Part shown: positions 13,384 to 24,779 of the stretch, in pieces
Position numbering within the stretch: the first letter of the stretch is position 1
Layout: every line of letters begins with the position of its first letter
Assembly: GCA_030550495.1 (NCBI GenBank)
Contig: JAUQPG010000005.1
Location: forward strand, 14,520 to 67,521
DNA length: 53,002 nt
Reading direction: 5' to 3'
From: Candidatus Bipolaricaulota bacterium
GTDB lineage: Bacteria; Bipolaricaulota; Bipolaricaulia; RBG-16-55-9; DRXL01
Notes under the pieces: model-generated
Told to the model about the DNA's origin: nothing
Databases searched by the model: none
The model's input: only the letters and a program-made list of their open reading frames with translations
Position numbers and translations under genes: made by a program

Positions 13384-13896
13384 ATGGCGCGAGCGCGTGG
13401 TGGTGAGCGTCGAGCTGAAGAGTTCGAGAACGAAGTGATCGATCTGCGACGCGTAGCCAAGGTGACCAAGGGCGGAAAGAACTTGAGCTTTCGCGCTGTG
13501 GTGGTCATCGGCGATGGGAAGGGGCAGATCGGCTTAGGCAAGGGGAACACCCGTGAGGTCCCCTCGGCGATCCAGCAAGCGATCCGCGACGCCAAGCGCA
13601 ATATCATTCAGATCCCGCTTGTGGAGGACCGCACGATCCCTCATGAGATCTGGGGAGAGTTTAAAGCGTCGCGGGTCCTGCTCAAGCCGGCCTTCCCCGG
13701 TACTGGGGTCATCGCGGGCGGGACGGTCGGGGCGATCTGTCGGCTTGCCGGTATCAAAGATATTCTGACGAAAGCTCAAGGGTCTACGAACCCGTTAACG
13801 TTGGCAAAGGCGACTCTTGACGGGCTGCGACGCCTCAAGACGCTTGAGGAAGTAGCGCGACTCCGCGATAAGAAGCCCGAGGAGGTCTTGCAATGA
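13384..13896 (+). CDS. rpsE: 30S ribosomal protein S5
   Basis: [18 protein letters not shown]. Confidence 0.98.
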
Positions 13897-14396
13897 AGCT
13901 CAGTGATCTGCGTCCTACACCGGGGAGCATGAAGAAGCCCAAGCGTGTCGGCCGGGGAAACGCTTCAGGTCATGGGACGTACTCGACTCGTGGGGGCAAG
14001 GGGCAGACGGCTCGGTCGGGGTACCGGATGCCGCCGGCGTTCGAAGGCGGTCAAACTCCGTTGTGGAAGCGCGTGCCCAAGCGCGGGTTCAAGAATATTT
14101 TGCGAAAGAGCTACGCTTACGTGAACGTCGGCCAACTGAATGAGATCTTCCCCGATGGCGCAGAGATCACCCCGAAGGTTCTCAAAGAGCATGGGCTCAT
14201 TAAAAAATATAGAAACGGCGTGAAGATTCTCGGCGATGGCCCGCTTTCCAAGAGACTGATCGTAAAAGCTCATAAATTCAGCAAGAGCGCTAAAGAGAAG
14301 ATCACGGCTGCTGGGGGCCAGGCGATCGCTTTGCTCCCCCAGGAGCAGTCCGAAGAAGCTCCCACAGAGACCCCAAAGAAGGCGTCAGGGAAGTGA
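13893..14396 (+). CDS. rplO: 50S ribosomal protein L15
   Basis: [27 protein letters not shown]; overlaps rpsE by ATGA. Confidence 0.98.
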
Positions 14397-14406
14397 CCAG
14401 TAAGCT

Positions 14407-16086
14407 ATGACTGAAGGGTTATTTGAGGCATTTCGGATCCCAGAAGTCCGGAAGCGCATTCTCTTTACGCTTGGGGTCATTATAGTCTTTCGGTTGGGGG
14501 CATGGATCCCCGTGCCCGGCGTCGATCCCAATCAGATCAAGCTCTTCATTCAGCAGTTAGGGCAGCTAGGGCAGTTCTTGAGCGCGTTCACAGGAGGGGC
14601 GCTTGAGCGCTTCTCGATCTTCGCTTTGGGGGTTATCCCGTACATTAACGCGTCGATTATCTTAAGCTTATTAGTCGCGGTCATTCCTAAACTGAAAGAG
14701 CTCCAGGACCAAGGGGAAGAGGGGCGACGCGTTATTAACAAGATCACGCGCTACGCGACAGTAGGTCTTGCGTTCATTCAAGCCGCTGGGACGAGCTATC
14801 TCATCTATAATCAAGGGTTAGTTCAGCCCACTCAGAGCTTTGTGGGCTTCATGTTCATCGCGATCGTCACGCTCACCACAGGGACGATGTTTTTGATGTG
14901 GCTAGGGGAGCGCCTCACGGAAAACGGCATTGGCCGTGGAATCTCAATGTTGATCATGATCGGGATCTTAGCAGATTATCCGCGCTACTTTGCCACGATC
15001 TGGGGCGAAGTGACAAGCAATCCCAACCCCATGAACGCTCTCTGGTTGCCGTTGCTCCTTGCGATCTATGTCATAGTCACAGCAGTCATCGTGATGGTCC
15101 AGCTTGGGGCACGGCGCATTGATATTCAGTACGCTAAGCGCATGGTCAAAGGGCGCGTCTATGGAGGGCATAGTACTTTCTTGCCCCTCCAAGTAAATCA
15201 GGGCGGCGTCATCCCCATTATCTTCGCGGTTGCGCTGCTTGCTATCCCCCAGACGATCTTTCAGTTTCTTGATCAGAACAACGTGATTACGAATATGATG
15301 GCCGAGCGGCGCATCGTGTTGGAGATCTCCGGGGAGAGCCAACCAGGGGATCTCTTCGTCAAAGTTGACGGCCACCTCGTGCAGATCTCTCTCGCTGAAA
15401 AACAGACCAGTGAACAAGTCGCTCAGGCTATCGCTGAGGTGCTCAATCGCCGTCAAGCCGGTTCTGCTGAGACACACAGCAGCCGTGTTATTATCCCCGT
15501 TGAACCCGACAGAGCCCCTGATAACCCCAAGACGATATCGATTGGGGAGACCCCTGACAATCTCATAGCACTCAATGGAATCGGTCAGAGCGCTATGGTG
15601 CGCGGCATTACGTTTGTGCGGGCTTCGGCTCGCGATTGGATGAACGTTGTCGGCGATTTTTTGAACTGGCTCTCTACGGATCTATCGCGCGGGCACGCGC
15701 TCTATATGATCTTGAGCGCGTTGCTGATCTTCTTCTTTACGTACTTTTACAGCGCGATTGTCTTTAATCCGCGCGATCTGGCGGAGAACTTACGGAAGTG
15801 GGGCGGCTTCGTGCCTGGGATTCGTCCGGGCAAGCCCACGGCAGATTTCATTGAATCTGTGCAGAGCCGCCTGCTCTTCATTGGGGCGCTCTTCTTGATT
15901 GTCATTGCCCTGCTTCCTATGATCATAACTAATGCGAGCGGGCTCACGACGTTCTTCTTGGGAGGCACGTCGTTGCTCATCGTCGTGGGCGTCGGCGTCG
16001 ACACGATCAAGCAGATTGAGGCGCACTTGGTGGAGCGCCGCTACGAGAGCTTGATCGCCAAGGGCGGCCTGGGGCGGCGGATCTGA
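14407..16086 (+). CDS. secY: Preprotein translocase SecY with a ~120-aa insertion
   Basis: SIFALGVIPYINASII, WLGERLTENGIG, GVIPIIFA, PGIRPGKPT, GGTSLLIVVGV; 559 aa. Confidence 0.98.
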   Translation: MTEGLFEAFRIPEVRKRILFTLGVIIVFRLGAWIPVPGVDPNQIKLFIQQLGQLGQFLSAFTGGALERFSIFALGVIPYINASIILSLLVAVIPKLKELQDQGEEGRRVINKITRYATVGLAFIQAAGTSYLIYNQGLVQPTQSFVGFMFIAIVTLTTGTMFLMWLGERLTENGIGRGISMLIMIGILADYPRYFATIWGEVTSNPNPMNALWLPLLLAIYVIVTAVIVMVQLGARRIDIQYAKRMVKGRVYGGHSTFLPLQVNQGGVIPIIFAVALLAIPQTIFQFLDQNNVITNMMAERRIVLEISGESQPGDLFVKVDGHLVQISLAEKQTSEQVAQAIAEVLNRRQAGSAETHSSRVIIPVEPDRAPDNPKTISIGETPDNLIALNGIGQSAMVRGITFVRASARDWMNVVGDFLNWLSTDLSRGHALYMILSALLIFFFTYFYSAIVFNPRDLAENLRKWGGFVPGIRPGKPTADFIESVQSRLLFIGALFLIVIALLPMIITNASGLTTFFLGGTSLLIVVGVGVDTIKQIEAHLVERRYESLIAKGGLGRRI

Positions 16087-16089
16087 GCT

Positions 16090-16719
16090 ATGACTGCACG
16101 ACGGATCGTACTTTTGGGACCCCCAGGATCAGGAAAGGGCACCCAAGCTGTGCGGCTGGCAGCGTGGTTGGGTGTCCCCCATATCTCTACGGGCGATCTG
16201 TTGCGCAACGAAGTCCAGAATCGTACAGAATTAGGGCTACAAGCGCAGAGCTTTATGGATCGTGGTGAGCTCGTTCCAGATCAGCTCGTCGCGGAGATGA
16301 TCCGCCAGCGCATCAAAGGTGCGACGGGCTTTGTACTGGACGGCTTCCCTCGAAATATCAAGCAAGCTGAGATTTTAGAGACCGTGACGACCGTCGAGCG
16401 GGCCTTGCACTTTCAGCTCAATCGGGAGGAGATCATTCGGCGGCTCAGCGCTCGCAGAGTCTGTCCGCAATGCGGGGCTGTGTATAATCTGATCTCGAGC
16501 CCGCCTCAGCACAATAGTTTGTGTGATAAGTGCAAGATAGCGTTAGTGCAGCGCTCGGATGATACTCCAGAAGTCATTCAAAGACGGATTGATGTGCAGT
16601 ATGCACGTGAGATCAGGCCGATACTCGAGTTCTACAGAAAGCGCAATGTGTTGCGGGAGATCGACGCTCAGGGCGATATAGAATCCGTCTATCGAGCAGC
16701 TCAACAAGCGTTGGAGTAA
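16090..16719 (+). CDS. adk: Adenylate kinase with zinc-lid
   Basis: GPPGSGKGTQA, HISTGDLLR, LDGFPR, CPQC...CDKC. Confidence 0.98.
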   Translation: MTARRIVLLGPPGSGKGTQAVRLAAWLGVPHISTGDLLRNEVQNRTELGLQAQSFMDRGELVPDQLVAEMIRQRIKGATGFVLDGFPRNIKQAEILETVTTVERALHFQLNREEIIRRLSARRVCPQCGAVYNLISSPPQHNSLCDKCKIALVQRSDDTPEVIQRRIDVQYAREIRPILEFYRKRNVLREIDAQGDIESVYRAAQQALE

Positions 16720-21257: not shown

Positions 21258-24200
21258 ATGCACACGATACGCAAACTTGTTGAGAAATACGGAAAGTACG
21301 TGATTTGGGCTGTGGTCATCAGTTTCGTGGCTGGGGCGCTGGTGATCTTTTCACCAGTGGCGTTCAACCCCGGCGCACGCAATGCCCCTAAGGAAGAAGA
21401 CGTCGTTCTTGTCGTGAACGGGGAGAAGATTGGGAAGGACCAGTACGAGCAAGCTTATCAGGAGATCCTCAATGAGCAACGCCAGTTCAATCCAGAGATT
21501 GAGAAGGCCCTCCAAGGGCCAGACGGGGCTTATAGACAATTACAATGGCGTGCCCAAGCGATTGATCGTCTCATTGAGAGAACTATAAAAGACCAAGAGA
21601 GTCGCAAGCGCGGGATCAGCGTCCCTGCCAAGAAGCTCGATGAGCGCTACAAGAAAGAGTATGAGAATTTCTTAGTCATGCTGCGCCAACGCTACGGTAT
21701 TGACGAGAAGGAGTTTGCCCGCATGCTGCGTGAGCAGGGCAGCTCCATCCAAGCCTATCAACGCCGGATTCGCGAATGGGTGGAAGCGCAACTCAAAGAA
21801 GAGCTTCTGGAGGAGGCTGTTGTCGGCCCAATCGACGTCTCCGATGCCCAATTGCTAGAGTTTATCGAGCAGAACAAGACGCGTTATATCACTGATATTT
21901 TGGGGTATCTCCAGCCGACGACGGCCGAGCTCCAAGCGTACTTCGAAGCCAACCGAGAGAAATATGCGACTCCTGAGGTCAAGGCCCGACATATCTTAGT
22001 GAAAGTGGACGAGAACGCCCCCGAAGAGCAAGTCGCTGAAGCGAGGAAGAAGATCGAGAATATTACGCGAGAACTCGAGCAGGGCGCGGACTTCGCTGAG
22101 CTTGCCAAGAAATATTCTGACGATAAGAGCAACGCCGAGAATGGCGGCGATCTAGGATGGTTTGGCAGGGGCGTCATGGTAAAGGAATTTGAAGACGCGG
22201 CGTTTGCTCTTGATATCGGGAAGATCAGCGACCCCGTGCGCACTCGCTACGGGTTCCATCTCATCAAAGTCGAGGACAAACGGGTGCGCACGTTCGAGCA
22301 AGCCCAATCAGACATGCGCCGCGATTGGATGAGAGAAAAAGAAGACGCGCTCTTCACTCAATGGCTCGAAGCGGCTAAGCAGGGCAACTTTTTAGAGCGC
22401 GTGCGGGTGAGCCGAATCTTCATCCCCATAGCGCCGGATGCCCCTGAAGACGAGCTGATCGCGGCACGCAAGCGCCTGCAGGAAGCCAAAGACAAACTCA
22501 GAGTCGAAGGCGCCAGCTTCTCCCAAGTGGTCCGAGAGTACTCCCAAGATCCAGACTTCAAGGACCGCAACGGCGATATGGGCTACCTCACGCTCATGGA
22601 TCTGCCCAAGGAGCTGCAAGACGCAATCGCTACTCTCCAGGTGGGCAAGATCAGCGATCTCATTCAGACGGCCCAGGGGCTCTGGCTCATTCGGCTCGAG
22701 GACCGCAAGAGCTGGGAGAAAGTCAAAGAGAGCATTGCAAGCGATTACCGAGTGCGCCAGCGCGTAGAGAGATTCGACCAGTGGCTCAAGCAAGCGAAGG
22801 AGTCAGCACGAATTGAGCTGCGGTTACCGTTGATCGCAGCATATCAGTTAGAGGAACAAGAGAAGATCGACGAGGCTATCGCTGCCTACGAGCGACTCTT
22901 GCAAGAGGGATCCTTGGCCGATGATGAGCTGGGGAGATATTTAGACTATTATATTGCTCGGCTCTATCAAGCGAAGCTGCGCCAAGCCGAGCAAGAGAAA
23001 GCTGAGCTTGAAAAGCAAGAGAACGTCGAAAACAAAGAAGCAAGGCTCAAAGAGCTTGAGCAGAAGATCAAAGAATATCGACAGAAGGCCGTGCAGCACT
23101 TATTAGAAATAGCCAAGACTGCCGAGGGGGATCGCAGCTTTTATGATCAGCTGTTGGCGCTCGATCCCGATAATCCTCAAGCGTACTATCAATATGGGCT
23201 CTTCTTGTTCACCGCTGGGGACCAGGAGAGCATTCAAAATGCGATCAAGATGACCAAGCGCGCCACGGAGCTTGCCCCGACCGATCCTGGACCGCTCCGG
23301 CTCTACGGGCACTTGATGATGTCGCTTAAGAACTACGCTATCGCTCTCGAATACTATCAGAAAGCCCTAGAAAAGCTCAATCCGGAGAAGGACAAGGGAG
23401 CGATCAAGACAGTGAAGCAGAAGATGGCCGAGGCATACTTTGGCTTAGAGGAGTGGGACAAGGCTGAAGCCCTCTATACGGAACTGCGCGAGCAGGAGCG
23501 CACCGAGCGCGGCTATGACGACCCGCGCATCGTAACAGCCTTGGCCGATATTGCTGTCAAGAAGGGCGACCCCGAACGCGCGGTCACTCTCTATCTGGAG
23601 TCGCTCAAGCTCCAGAACAACCCCAACGTGCGCTTGAAGCTTGGGCGAGCTTACGAAGAGCTCGGCGATCTCGAGAACGCTGCGAAACAGTACACTCAAG
23701 TGATCAAGGAATCCCCCTATCTTGCTGAGGCGTATATGGCACTGGGGGACTTGCAGCGCAAGCAAGGCCAGACCGACGAGGCTCTCAAAAATTATCGTGA
23801 AGGCTTTAAGCGCACAGCGGCGGCAGAGCTGCGTGAGCAGTTAGGGGAGCGCATCGTCGAGCTCGACCCCAAAGATTTCGAAACGCGCTTCCAGTTAGCG
23901 AAGCAATACCAGAAGCAGCATATCTTCGAGTCTGCTGTGCGACACTATACAGCGATCTTAGAGCAAGGGCCAACTCCCGAGCAGGCGCTCAACGCGTACA
24001 TTGGACTGGGGGACGTTGCTGTGGGCCGCGCCGAGTATGAACAAGCAAAGAGTCACTATAAATCCGGGCTGGCCGTAGCGACGACCGACGACCAGAAGAA
24101 GAATCTCTATCAAAAGATTCTTGACGCAGAGCGCTCGCTGGTCGGTGCAGAGGGCAAGCTCGGAGAAGATGGCTTAGAGGCGATGTACCAACTTGCAGTT

Positions 24201-24779
24201 ATCGCGCGCAATCAGCAAAAGATCGCCGACATGCGCGAGCAACTCGAGAAACTCAAAGAACAAAATCCGAATTACAAAGCGAACGAAGTCGCCCAGATGC
24301 TCTACGAAGTCACGGGCAAATGGAGCGACGACAAACCCGGTATGCCCATACCCATCCAAGAAGTCTTCGGGCCCATCTCTGTAGGGCAAGAACATGAGCC
24401 GTATAATTCGACGCCGCCCACTTCAGGAGCTTATGCTGAAGGAGAGATCGCCTTCGGGGTGCATCAAGAATCGATCGCTGAAGAGCTTCAGGTATGGGCA
24501 CTGCGCGGCGGTGCTGTGCTCATCCAATATGGGCCAGAGACGGACGCTACGACTATAACTCAGTTGGGGGATCTAGTGAAGCGCTTACAAAACGAGCACG
24601 CTGAGAAGTATTGTCGTCTGATCGTCGCCCCGTATGAGAAGCTCGAACCCAAGCAGCTTGTGCTCACGGCGTGGGGGCGTATCGATAAGCTCTCGTCGTA
24701 TGATGAGAATCGCATCGAGAGCTTTATCGACGAATGGATCAACAAGGGGCCGGAACAGATCCCCTGCTCCCGGCAATAA
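21258..24779 (+). CDS. Membrane-anchored SurA/PrsA/PpiD-like foldase: SurA_N + 2 parvulin domains + TPR array + DUF3105-like C-terminus
   Basis: N-terminal TM; VKARHILV...FAELAKKYSDD...GGDLGWFGRG...EFEDAAF...YGFHLI; second parvulin (RNGDMGY); many TPR-like helices; YNSTPPTSG...LTAWGR...GPE. Confidence 0.85.
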   Translation: MHTIRKLVEKYGKYVIWAVVISFVAGALVIFSPVAFNPGARNAPKEEDVVLVVNGEKIGKDQYEQAYQEILNEQRQFNPEIEKALQGPDGAYRQLQWRAQAIDRLIERTIKDQESRKRGISVPAKKLDERYKKEYENFLVMLRQRYGIDEKEFARMLREQGSSIQAYQRRIREWVEAQLKEELLEEAVVGPIDVSDAQLLEFIEQNKTRYITDILGYLQPTTAELQAYFEANREKYATPEVKARHILVKVDENAPEEQVAEARKKIENITRELEQGADFAELAKKYSDDKSNAENGGDLGWFGRGVMVKEFEDAAFALDIGKISDPVRTRYGFHLIKVEDKRVRTFEQAQSDMRRDWMREKEDALFTQWLEAAKQGNFLERVRVSRIFIPIAPDAPEDELIAARKRLQEAKDKLRVEGASFSQVVREYSQDPDFKDRNGDMGYLTLMDLPKELQDAIATLQVGKISDLIQTAQGLWLIRLEDRKSWEKVKESIASDYRVRQRVERFDQWLKQAKESARIELRLPLIAAYQLEEQEKIDEAIAAYERLLQEGSLADDELGRYLDYYIARLYQAKLRQAEQEKAELEKQENVENKEARLKELEQKIKEYRQKAVQHLLEIAKTAEGDRSFYDQLLALDPDNPQAYYQYGLFLFTAGDQESIQNAIKMTKRATELAPTDPGPLRLYGHLMMSLKNYAIALEYYQKALEKLNPEKDKGAIKTVKQKMAEAYFGLEEWDKAEALYTELREQERTERGYDDPRIVTALADIAVKKGDPERAVTLYLESLKLQNNPNVRLKLGRAYEELGDLENAAKQYTQVIKESPYLAEAYMALGDLQRKQGQTDEALKNYREGFKRTAAAELREQLGERIVELDPKDFETRFQLAKQYQKQHIFESAVRHYTAILEQGPTPEQALNAYIGLGDVAVGRAEYEQAKSHYKSGLAVATTDDQKKNLYQKILDAERSLVGAEGKLGEDGLEAMYQLAVIARNQQKIADMREQLEKLKEQNPNYKANEVAQMLYEVTGKWSDDKPGMPIPIQEVFGPISVGQEHEPYNSTPPTSGAYAEGEIAFGVHQESIAEELQVWALRGGAVLIQYGPETDATTITQLGDLVKRLQNEHAEKYCRLIVAPYEKLEPKQLVLTAWGRIDKLSSYDENRIESFIDEWINKGPEQIPCSRQ

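Follow-up and report, generated by a model that had tools for sequence, protein, structure and literature searches.

A predicted periplasmic domain within the SecY of a Candidatus Bipolaricaulota genus and its homology to IPTL-CTERM passenger domains

Few membrane proteins are as conserved as SecY. The unusually long SecY described here, encoded within a 53,002-nucleotide stretch of DNA (the window; positions 14,520 to 67,521 of contig JAUQPG010000005.1), is on good support the housekeeping SecY of an uncultured Candidatus Bipolaricaulota genome from a hot spring. The loop between its seventh and eighth transmembrane helices (TM7 and TM8) holds a domain of 107 amino acids (aa) that is very probably a captured passenger domain, of the kind found in small exported proteins that bear a signal peptide and an IPTL-CTERM sorting tag. 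We propose that this domain folds on the far side of the membrane and that it may serve as a built-in accessory part of the translocon; with identity, origin and docking function weighed together, we put the probability of this explanation at roughly 0.7, the function being by far its more tentative part.

Results

Limits and position of the insert

The gene and the parts of its product that concern us lie as follows, in window coordinates and residues of the encoded protein.

14407..16086, + strand: secY, an open reading frame (ORF) of 559 aa, the sole SecY found in the genome, with matches to Pfam SecY and to the PDB (E 1e-107)
15208..15276, + strand: TM7 (residues 268-290), one side of the lateral gate; a helix in the full-length model, aligned to TM7 of solved SecYs
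15277..15306, + strand: N-terminal linker of the loop (residues 291-300), native SecY sequence that aligns with the loop of insert-less relatives, with a short helix at 293-298
15307..15627, + strand: the inserted domain (residues 301-407), predicted as beta-beta-beta-helix and then six strands, and homologous to the IPTL-CTERM passenger domain
15637..15690, + strand: native periplasmic helix before TM8 (residues 411-428, W.N...FLNWL..DL); a helix in the model, present in all insert-less relatives and corresponding to E. coli SecY 300-318
15697..15762, + strand: TM8 (residues 431-452); a helix in the model, aligned to TM8 of solved SecYs

The 559-aa protein scores 341.4 bits against the Pfam SecY family (PF00344; cut-off 32.2), in two stretches, and a phmmer search of the PDB, in which 17 sequences matched, divides it in the same manner: residues 5-297 align with residues 5-298 of T. 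maritima SecY and residues 428-555 with 301-427 (3DIN chain C, E 1.2e-107), and the blocks that align with E. coli SecY are residues 11-287 and 419-555. Both halves of the channel, of five helices each, are complete by alignment to solved SecYs, and between TM7 and TM8 there are about 120-130 residues that have no counterpart in them. Alignment with the 453-aa SecY of a member of the same genus (G012) and with those of other relatives sets the limits of the insert at residues 301-407 (107 aa, RRIVLEISG...GITFVRAS; window 15307-15627). The cytoplasmic loops that flank the insert region are conserved in the alignment with relatives, and the GC content across the insert (0.54-0.55) is like that of its flanks. 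An earlier note on this DNA had described an insert of about 120 aa in the TM7-TM8 loop, at 15271-15640, and the two-block alignment upholds it, the noted interval enclosing both the insert and its linker.

SecY has ten helices and both of its termini are cytoplasmic, as are the TM6-TM7 hairpin and the PGIRPG loop between TM8 and TM9, while the TM7-TM8 loop is on the extracytoplasmic side. This established topology, along with the alignment of TM7 and TM8 to solved SecYs, agrees with the extracytoplasmic location that the earlier note gave to the insert, and a cytoplasmic placement, which would have spoken against that note, is not what it gives. The presence of an Omp85/BamA homologue in the genome (87 bits; cut-off 24) makes it most likely that the extracytoplasmic side is a periplasm.

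Homology to the passenger domain of proteins encoded beside exosortase H

The search for SecY in relatives returned one unexpected extra match, a 160-aa ORF in genome G011 that is 35% identical to SecY residues 299-404. Stand-alone homologues of this kind, 160-164 aa in length, occur in G011, in G013 and in the source genome itself (G000; 164 aa, contig C20 15433-15927), and they share a layout consisting of a signal peptide that ends in ALA before a further A, a domain of about 100 aa, and a tail of the form SLPTLT(E/Q)WGLIALAVLLAGG...RRR. The tail is an IPTL-CTERM sorting domain (TIGR04174, 24.8 bits with a cut-off of 20.5; PF18203, 31.7 bits with a cut-off of 20.8), and the stand-alone gene is adjoined by one for exosortase H (XrtH; TIGR04177, 93.8 bits in G011 and 87.9 bits in the source genome, cut-off 86), of which these small proteins are presumed to be cargo. 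The cluster in the source genome is situated outside the window (C20 15433-20625). Three of its products are IPTL-CTERM proteins, namely the stand-alone paralogue, one with VWA and one more; it also encodes XrtH and a number of small membrane proteins that are polytopic. Immediately upstream of this cluster are two multi-CxxCH proteins, NrfA/NrfH-like by eye only.

Comparisons in both directions relate the insert to these proteins. By BLASTP, insert positions 2-103 align with positions 25-121 of the G011 stand-alone protein at 33% identity. A hidden Markov model (HMM) built solely from the passenger parts of 19 stand-alone proteins and run against every six-frame ORF of 40 aa or more in the source genome (22,682 in all) recovered two sequences only: the stand-alone gene (1.9e-27) and, at about residues 302-403, SecY (1.2e-10). 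The reverse search gave 1.7e-4. An hhalign comparison of 11 inserts with 20 stand-alone proteins returned a probability of 99.1% and an E value of 1.1e-18 over 95 columns, pairing insert positions 2-104 with 25-123. The homology begins past the ALA-A site and ends just short of the IPTL motif. These alignments show that the insert is homologous, from end to end, to the mature passenger domain of the small proteins with signal peptide and IPTL-CTERM tag, such that the piece within SecY corresponds to the mature protein after cleavage of the signal peptide and removal of the tag, and both forms would fold outside the cytoplasm. The insert has no N-terminal signal peptide and no tag of IPTL motif, TM helix and basic cluster (no NCBIfam or Pfam match), and it cannot be an exosortase substrate.

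Two further sequences picked up by a mixed profile (G017:C22 and G002:C110) were rejected as stand-alone homologues, since the passenger-only HMM does not match them and they have only the signal peptide and tag in common with the others.

Distribution and a single gain

Our survey of SecY covered 41 genomes, the source genome and 40 relatives, with 14 in the genus. The insert is present in 12 of these 14: ten have a full SecY of 555-561 aa, and the copies of two others (G002, G011) are cut by contig ends. The SecY of G012, in the same genus, is without the insert (453 aa), and the genome search found no canonical SecY in the remaining member, G005 (61% complete). Absence from close relatives, which the earlier note had named as a reason to discard the insert, is therefore not what is found. 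Among the 27 genomes of other genera, 26 match SecY only as two blocks and G027 (70% complete) has no match; SecY ORFs extracted from 18 other-genus genomes are 428-453 aa in length. Beyond these genomes, a collection of 5.8 billion proteins contains 40 further insert-bearing SecYs, at 59-89% identity and, apart from two fragments, 554-560 aa long.

A SecY tree of 34 rows, with the loop columns left out, groups all 14 insert-bearing rows in a single clade (SH-aLRT 98) that excludes G012 as well as the sister genus. One state change suffices on this tree, and no losses are seen among the 14 insert-bearing rows. That the insert was gained once, in frame, by one ancestor inside a Candidatus Bipolaricaulota genus is well supported by this distribution, and the insert-less SecY is the ancestral state.

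The same junctions recur in public data: at least half of the sampled words across both of them were present in 19 runs from several studies, most labelled hot-spring or sediment metagenomes and two of them RNA libraries. Contigs from these two RNA libraries extend over the entire gene and run across both junctions, with no joint reported (X5 record 12 spans 15120-16200; X13 records 4 and 6 span 15307 and 15627). Raw RNA reads over the stretch numbered two in X21 and none in X22, too few to say anything.

The insert-less SecYs of G012, G015, G016 and G017 have a TM7-TM8 loop that is about 17-20 residues longer than that of the other families of the order, and the lengthened native loop bears the motif WWP..NE.NP.W (window 15277-15306; alignment columns 310-340). 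Judged from this alignment, the domain appears to have entered a loop that had already lengthened.

A folded domain under purifying selection

Modelled by AlphaFold2 together with short flanking stretches (116 aa in total; alignment of 30 rows), the insert shows three strands, a 15-residue helix and six further strands, and has a mean predicted local distance difference test score (pLDDT) of 91.6 and a predicted template modelling score (pTM) of 0.84. The full-length SecY model (mean pLDDT 74.1, pTM 0.62) reproduces the same secondary structure, and the insert is its most confident part, the means of 10-residue blocks being mostly 83-89 and falling to 70-75 in the loop at 361-380. The soluble folded domain suggested in the earlier note is thereby borne out, and the disorder that would have spoken against it is not what the models predict. 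The insert has no usable family match: Pfam returned only a chance-level Phage_lambda_P row (E 0.13), and NCBIfam nothing.

By the Nei-Gojobori method (10 genomes, with 44 of 45 pairs usable), the median ratio of nonsynonymous to synonymous substitution rates (dN/dS) is 0.129 in the insert vs. 0.062 in the rest of SecY, and in the closest genome pairs 0.09 vs. 0.03-0.04; these values are rough, since dS exceeds 1 (saturation) in most pairs. Their direction is nevertheless clear, in that the insert is under purifying selection about half as strict as that on the body of the channel. Across 11 sequences, 30 of the 107 insert positions are invariant, many of them polar (including E6, S11, Q12, Q26, Q33, E36, N47, T56, S58, K75, E81 and R105).

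Fold class and the wider module family

When the insert model was compared by VIA-align with 48,161 chains, six reached Z scores of at least 8, with 89-102 residues aligned at root-mean-square deviations (rmsd) of 2.7-3.2 A. These are the phage Mu sheath (99-211; Z 10.5, rmsd 2.9 A, 102 residues aligned), the cyanophage A-1(L) sheath (90-187; Z 9.8), the P-SCSP1u nozzle (144-254; Z 9.3), P. aeruginosa FliC (171-277; Z 8.5), a Klebsiella phage baseplate protein (Z 8.4) and T4 gp11 (80-184; Z 8.3). FliD D2-D3 scored 5.4-6.3, and the middle modules of the lytic polysaccharide monooxygenases CbpD and GbpA 6.2-6.6. The earlier note had likened the insert to modules of flagellin, hook-cap or tail-sheath proteins, and this likeness holds, with Foldseek placing the same set first. 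Each of the six best matches lies inside a longer chain, that of a sheath, nozzle, flagellin or baseplate protein; such a module would probably leave and re-enter its host chain at one point, which would explain how it can fit a loop between adjacent helices. Neighbours in a protein atlas (0.89-0.95) are unnamed viral or bacterial clusters or crAss auxiliary capsid proteins, and we treat them as leads only.

A profile of 11 inserts and three passenger parts matched 13 proteins at E <= 0.001 among 1.84 billion representatives. Five of the 13 are small IPTL-CTERM proteins or fragments; three others are P0162 (1022 aa), in which an IPTL-CTERM tag accompanies Ig-like domains and an integrin-beta VWA domain, P0163 (946 aa), with CARDB and IPTL-CTERM, and P0164 (822 aa), an S-layer-homology protein named from Paenibacillus profundus that has five partial module stretches. 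The remaining five are giants of 1249-1666 aa without a significant Pfam family, four having none at all and P0167 a sub-threshold PCB_OB. The module seems, from these matches, to be rare and, wherever its context is readable, to form part of exported surface-type proteins. The IPTL-CTERM class itself includes surface-layer proteins, because the S-layer protein of Methylomirabilis lanthanidiphila is reported to carry the tag (PMC8671808).

In the IPTL-CTERM protein P0055 (261 aa), which gives the top profile match (2.9e-34), the passenger domain is duplicated and interleaved, in three stretches.

Genomic setting

The gene order S5-L15-SecY-Adk-Map is the usual housekeeping place of secY. The start of the L15 gene overlaps the stop codon of the S5 gene (window 13384-14396), with no L30 gene between them, and L15 is 167 aa in the window and 221 aa in G012 (L014 2783-3448), where it has a long Lys/Glu-rich C-terminal tail. 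The source genome is a 1.63-Mb assembly of 66 contigs that is 92% complete, with the window on contig C28. It contains one SecY match, as do the better assemblies G008, G009 and G013, and a tblastn search with a divergent SecY paralogue found no second SecY in it, matching only the gene in the window.

This divergent SecY-like paralogue occurs in two relatives (L015 1452-3275 in G005:C4 and L016 1330-2910 in G017:C209) and is 526-607 aa long. It has about 40% identity to the N-terminal half of SecY, the region of its TM6-TM7 cytoplasmic hairpin is degenerate, and its C-terminal extension consists of a soluble segment and additional hydrophobic helices.

Farther along the window, 21258-24779 (+ strand) encodes a periplasmic foldase-like protein of 1173 aa. 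Its N-terminus is SurA_N/PpiD-like, two PPIC rotamase domains and a long TPR region are present, and DUF3105 lies at the C-terminus. So large a fusion is unusual for a chaperone of the PpiD/SurA type, and the protein is conserved at full length across the family.

Discussion

We consider it very likely that the insert in this SecY is a captured passenger domain. Because the insert-less SecY is ancestral and the module is present in other exported proteins, the likely direction of transfer is from a surface-protein gene into secY. During synthesis of SecY, the domain would be exported through the existing translocon, and export of so large a loop probably needs SecA, by analogy with E. coli work on large periplasmic loops. 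It would then fold in the periplasm, at the outer end of the TM7/TM8 hairpin and on the lateral-gate side of the channel exit, where it could act as a built-in accessory part, serving as a platform to dock or space either exported chains as they emerge or an envelope partner, and would not contribute to the pore. We hold this accessory function only tentatively, at less than even odds, and favour it because anatomy and selection are what remain: a conserved, rigid domain, with more than a quarter of its positions invariant (30/107), at the periplasmic end of the TM7/TM8 hairpin.

Several observations weigh against this explanation. With respect to origin, the domain tree is unrooted and a single long branch parts the inserts from the stand-alone forms, so the direction of transfer stays inferred, and among 18 family genomes the passenger domain was seen solely within the insert-bearing clade. 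With respect to function, none of the candidate partners follows the insert. Only three of the 12 insert-bearing genomes were found to have the stand-alone paralogue, a further copy in G006 being broken, and it was not found in genomes as complete as G009 (96%) and G008 (90%). XrtH above the cut-off is present in eight of the 18 family genomes, among them the insert-less G012 and G017, and not in G007, G008 or G009. The foldase, which the earlier note had put forward as a possible partner, shows no co-variation with the insert, being equally full length in the insert-less G012, G015 and G016, and that suggestion is not sustained. The dN/dS of the insert, besides being read through saturated dS, is twice that of the remaining SecY. 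The structural resemblance has its own limits: Foldseek against the PDB puts the same proteins on top at E values of 4.5e-3 to 1e-2, none reaching 0.001, and identities to the fold matches are only 13-19%, with no Pfam family and no relation detected at the level of sequence, for which reason we claim likeness of fold and not descent. Finally, the uninterrupted RNA-library contigs argue against removal of the insert at the RNA level, but such libraries may contain DNA.

Some of these same observations would be expected if the domain were captured by chance and retained without any role of its own, only because a misfolded or deleted loop harms an essential SecY. This is a credible alternative, though we judge it somewhat improbable. 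The lack of a co-varying partner among the paralogue, XrtH and the foldase is consistent with it, as are the doubled dN/dS of the insert and the success of a close relative, G012, that is insert-less; moreover, modules of this fold class are, as a matter of general background, typically dispensable surface decoration. However, a dN/dS of about 0.13 amounts to strong constraint across species that differ by 11-49% within the insert, and the number of invariant positions, many of them polar, together with the lack of any loss among the 14 insert-bearing rows, likewise speaks against mere tolerance. A more specific proposal, that the domain in SecY binds its stand-alone IPTL-CTERM paralogue or forms a link between the translocon and XrtH, with cargo being handed from the lateral gate to the exosortase, strikes us as unlikely. 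The insert and the cargo encoded next to XrtH do belong to the same domain family, and, given what is established of Sec biology, IPTL-CTERM tails would have to leave SecY via the lateral gate, by TM7 and TM8; but seven of the 12 insert-bearing genomes showed no stand-alone passenger, and the three insert-bearing genomes in which XrtH above the cut-off was not found are 85-96% complete, yet two insert-less ones possess it.

We regard it as quite unlikely that the domain serves to alter or shield the periplasmic surface of SecY against agents that use this protein as an entry route or receptor, in that the insert is conserved and not diversifying (dN/dS 0.13) and we know of no SecY-targeting toxin or phage for this lineage. 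What speaks for such a role is that the fold class varies on exposed surfaces and that two contact-dependent inhibition toxins have been reported to exploit SecY for entry (PMC7858069). That the insert is instead a removable element, such as an intein or an intron-like element, or a product of chimeric assembly, is suggested by its size alone and is extremely improbable. An intein would have C, S or T at its first residue and HN followed by C, S or T at its end, and these splice residues are missing from an insert that starts at R301 and ends with A406-S407, before A408; nor is there a Hint or intein match in Pfam, and the earlier note was correct in reporting no intein signatures. The insert keeps the reading frame and evolves under purifying selection, the RNA-library contigs have no joints, and the recurrence of the insert in 12 genomes, 40 additional proteins and 19 runs argues against an artefact of assembly.

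In most respects this protein resembles the canonical bacterial SecY of E. coli, T. maritima and T. thermophilus, with the same two-half channel, cytoplasmic loops and place in the spc operon, and as the sole copy. It departs from them in the TM7-TM8 loop, which has a few to about 20 residues in solved bacterial SecYs and about 140 in the window SecY, including the folded domain of 107 aa. In all the solved bacterial structures that matched, the periplasmic loops of SecY are short. The eukaryotic counterpart of the insert site is lumenal loop 7 of Sec61, which is the same TM7-TM8 loop, and according to reviews BiP acts there. Loop 7 is, however, native channel sequence and not an acquired domain, and a comparison by Pfam only gives no relation to the insert. 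In yeast this loop is reported to be large and functionally important, its deletion leading to defects in import and in endoplasmic-reticulum-associated degradation (PMC3897919).

Among exported proteins, the nearest comparison is with XrtH cargo (TIGR04174, PF18203, TIGR04177), with which the insert shares the passenger domain and from which it differs in missing the signal peptide and the IPTL tag. The D2/D3 domains of flagellin and FliD, the outer domains of sheath proteins, the podophage nozzle and T4 gp11 are of the same fold class and are also internal, outward-facing segments, but their hosts are filament or virion proteins, whereas the host of the insert is a membrane channel. At the translocon itself, PpiD-YfgM and the large periplasmic domains of SecDF and YidC likewise face the periplasm and help emerging chains; these are separate proteins, in contrast to the insert, which is part of SecY and in which no chaperone-like family was detected. 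Association of the PpiD-YfgM periplasmic chaperone pair with SecYEG in E. coli has been reported (PMC9643414).

The open full-text literature on SecY inserts and on this phylum contains no description that we could find of an insert-bearing SecY, subscription-only literature being outside our reach. What is new is the domain captured into SecY, and its apparent origin; SecY itself is known, and we describe a variant of a known protein and not a new system. A stable, selected domain of 107 residues at the outer end of the lateral-gate helices indicates that this site tolerates an entire folded module, and the lineage serves as a natural experiment on the capacities of the channel's trans side. 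It also provides a clean example of domain capture, from exported cargo to exporting machine, and a first context for an unnamed and rare family of extracytoplasmic domains. It is conceivable, if doubtful, that the translocon of this clade has turned a cargo domain into a working periplasmic receptor at the lateral gate, one that would catch or position an envelope partner or surface proteins as they emerge. If that is true, SecY alone would do here what other bacteria accomplish through separate factors such as PpiD-YfgM, and it would be the first known SecY with a functional folded accessory domain.

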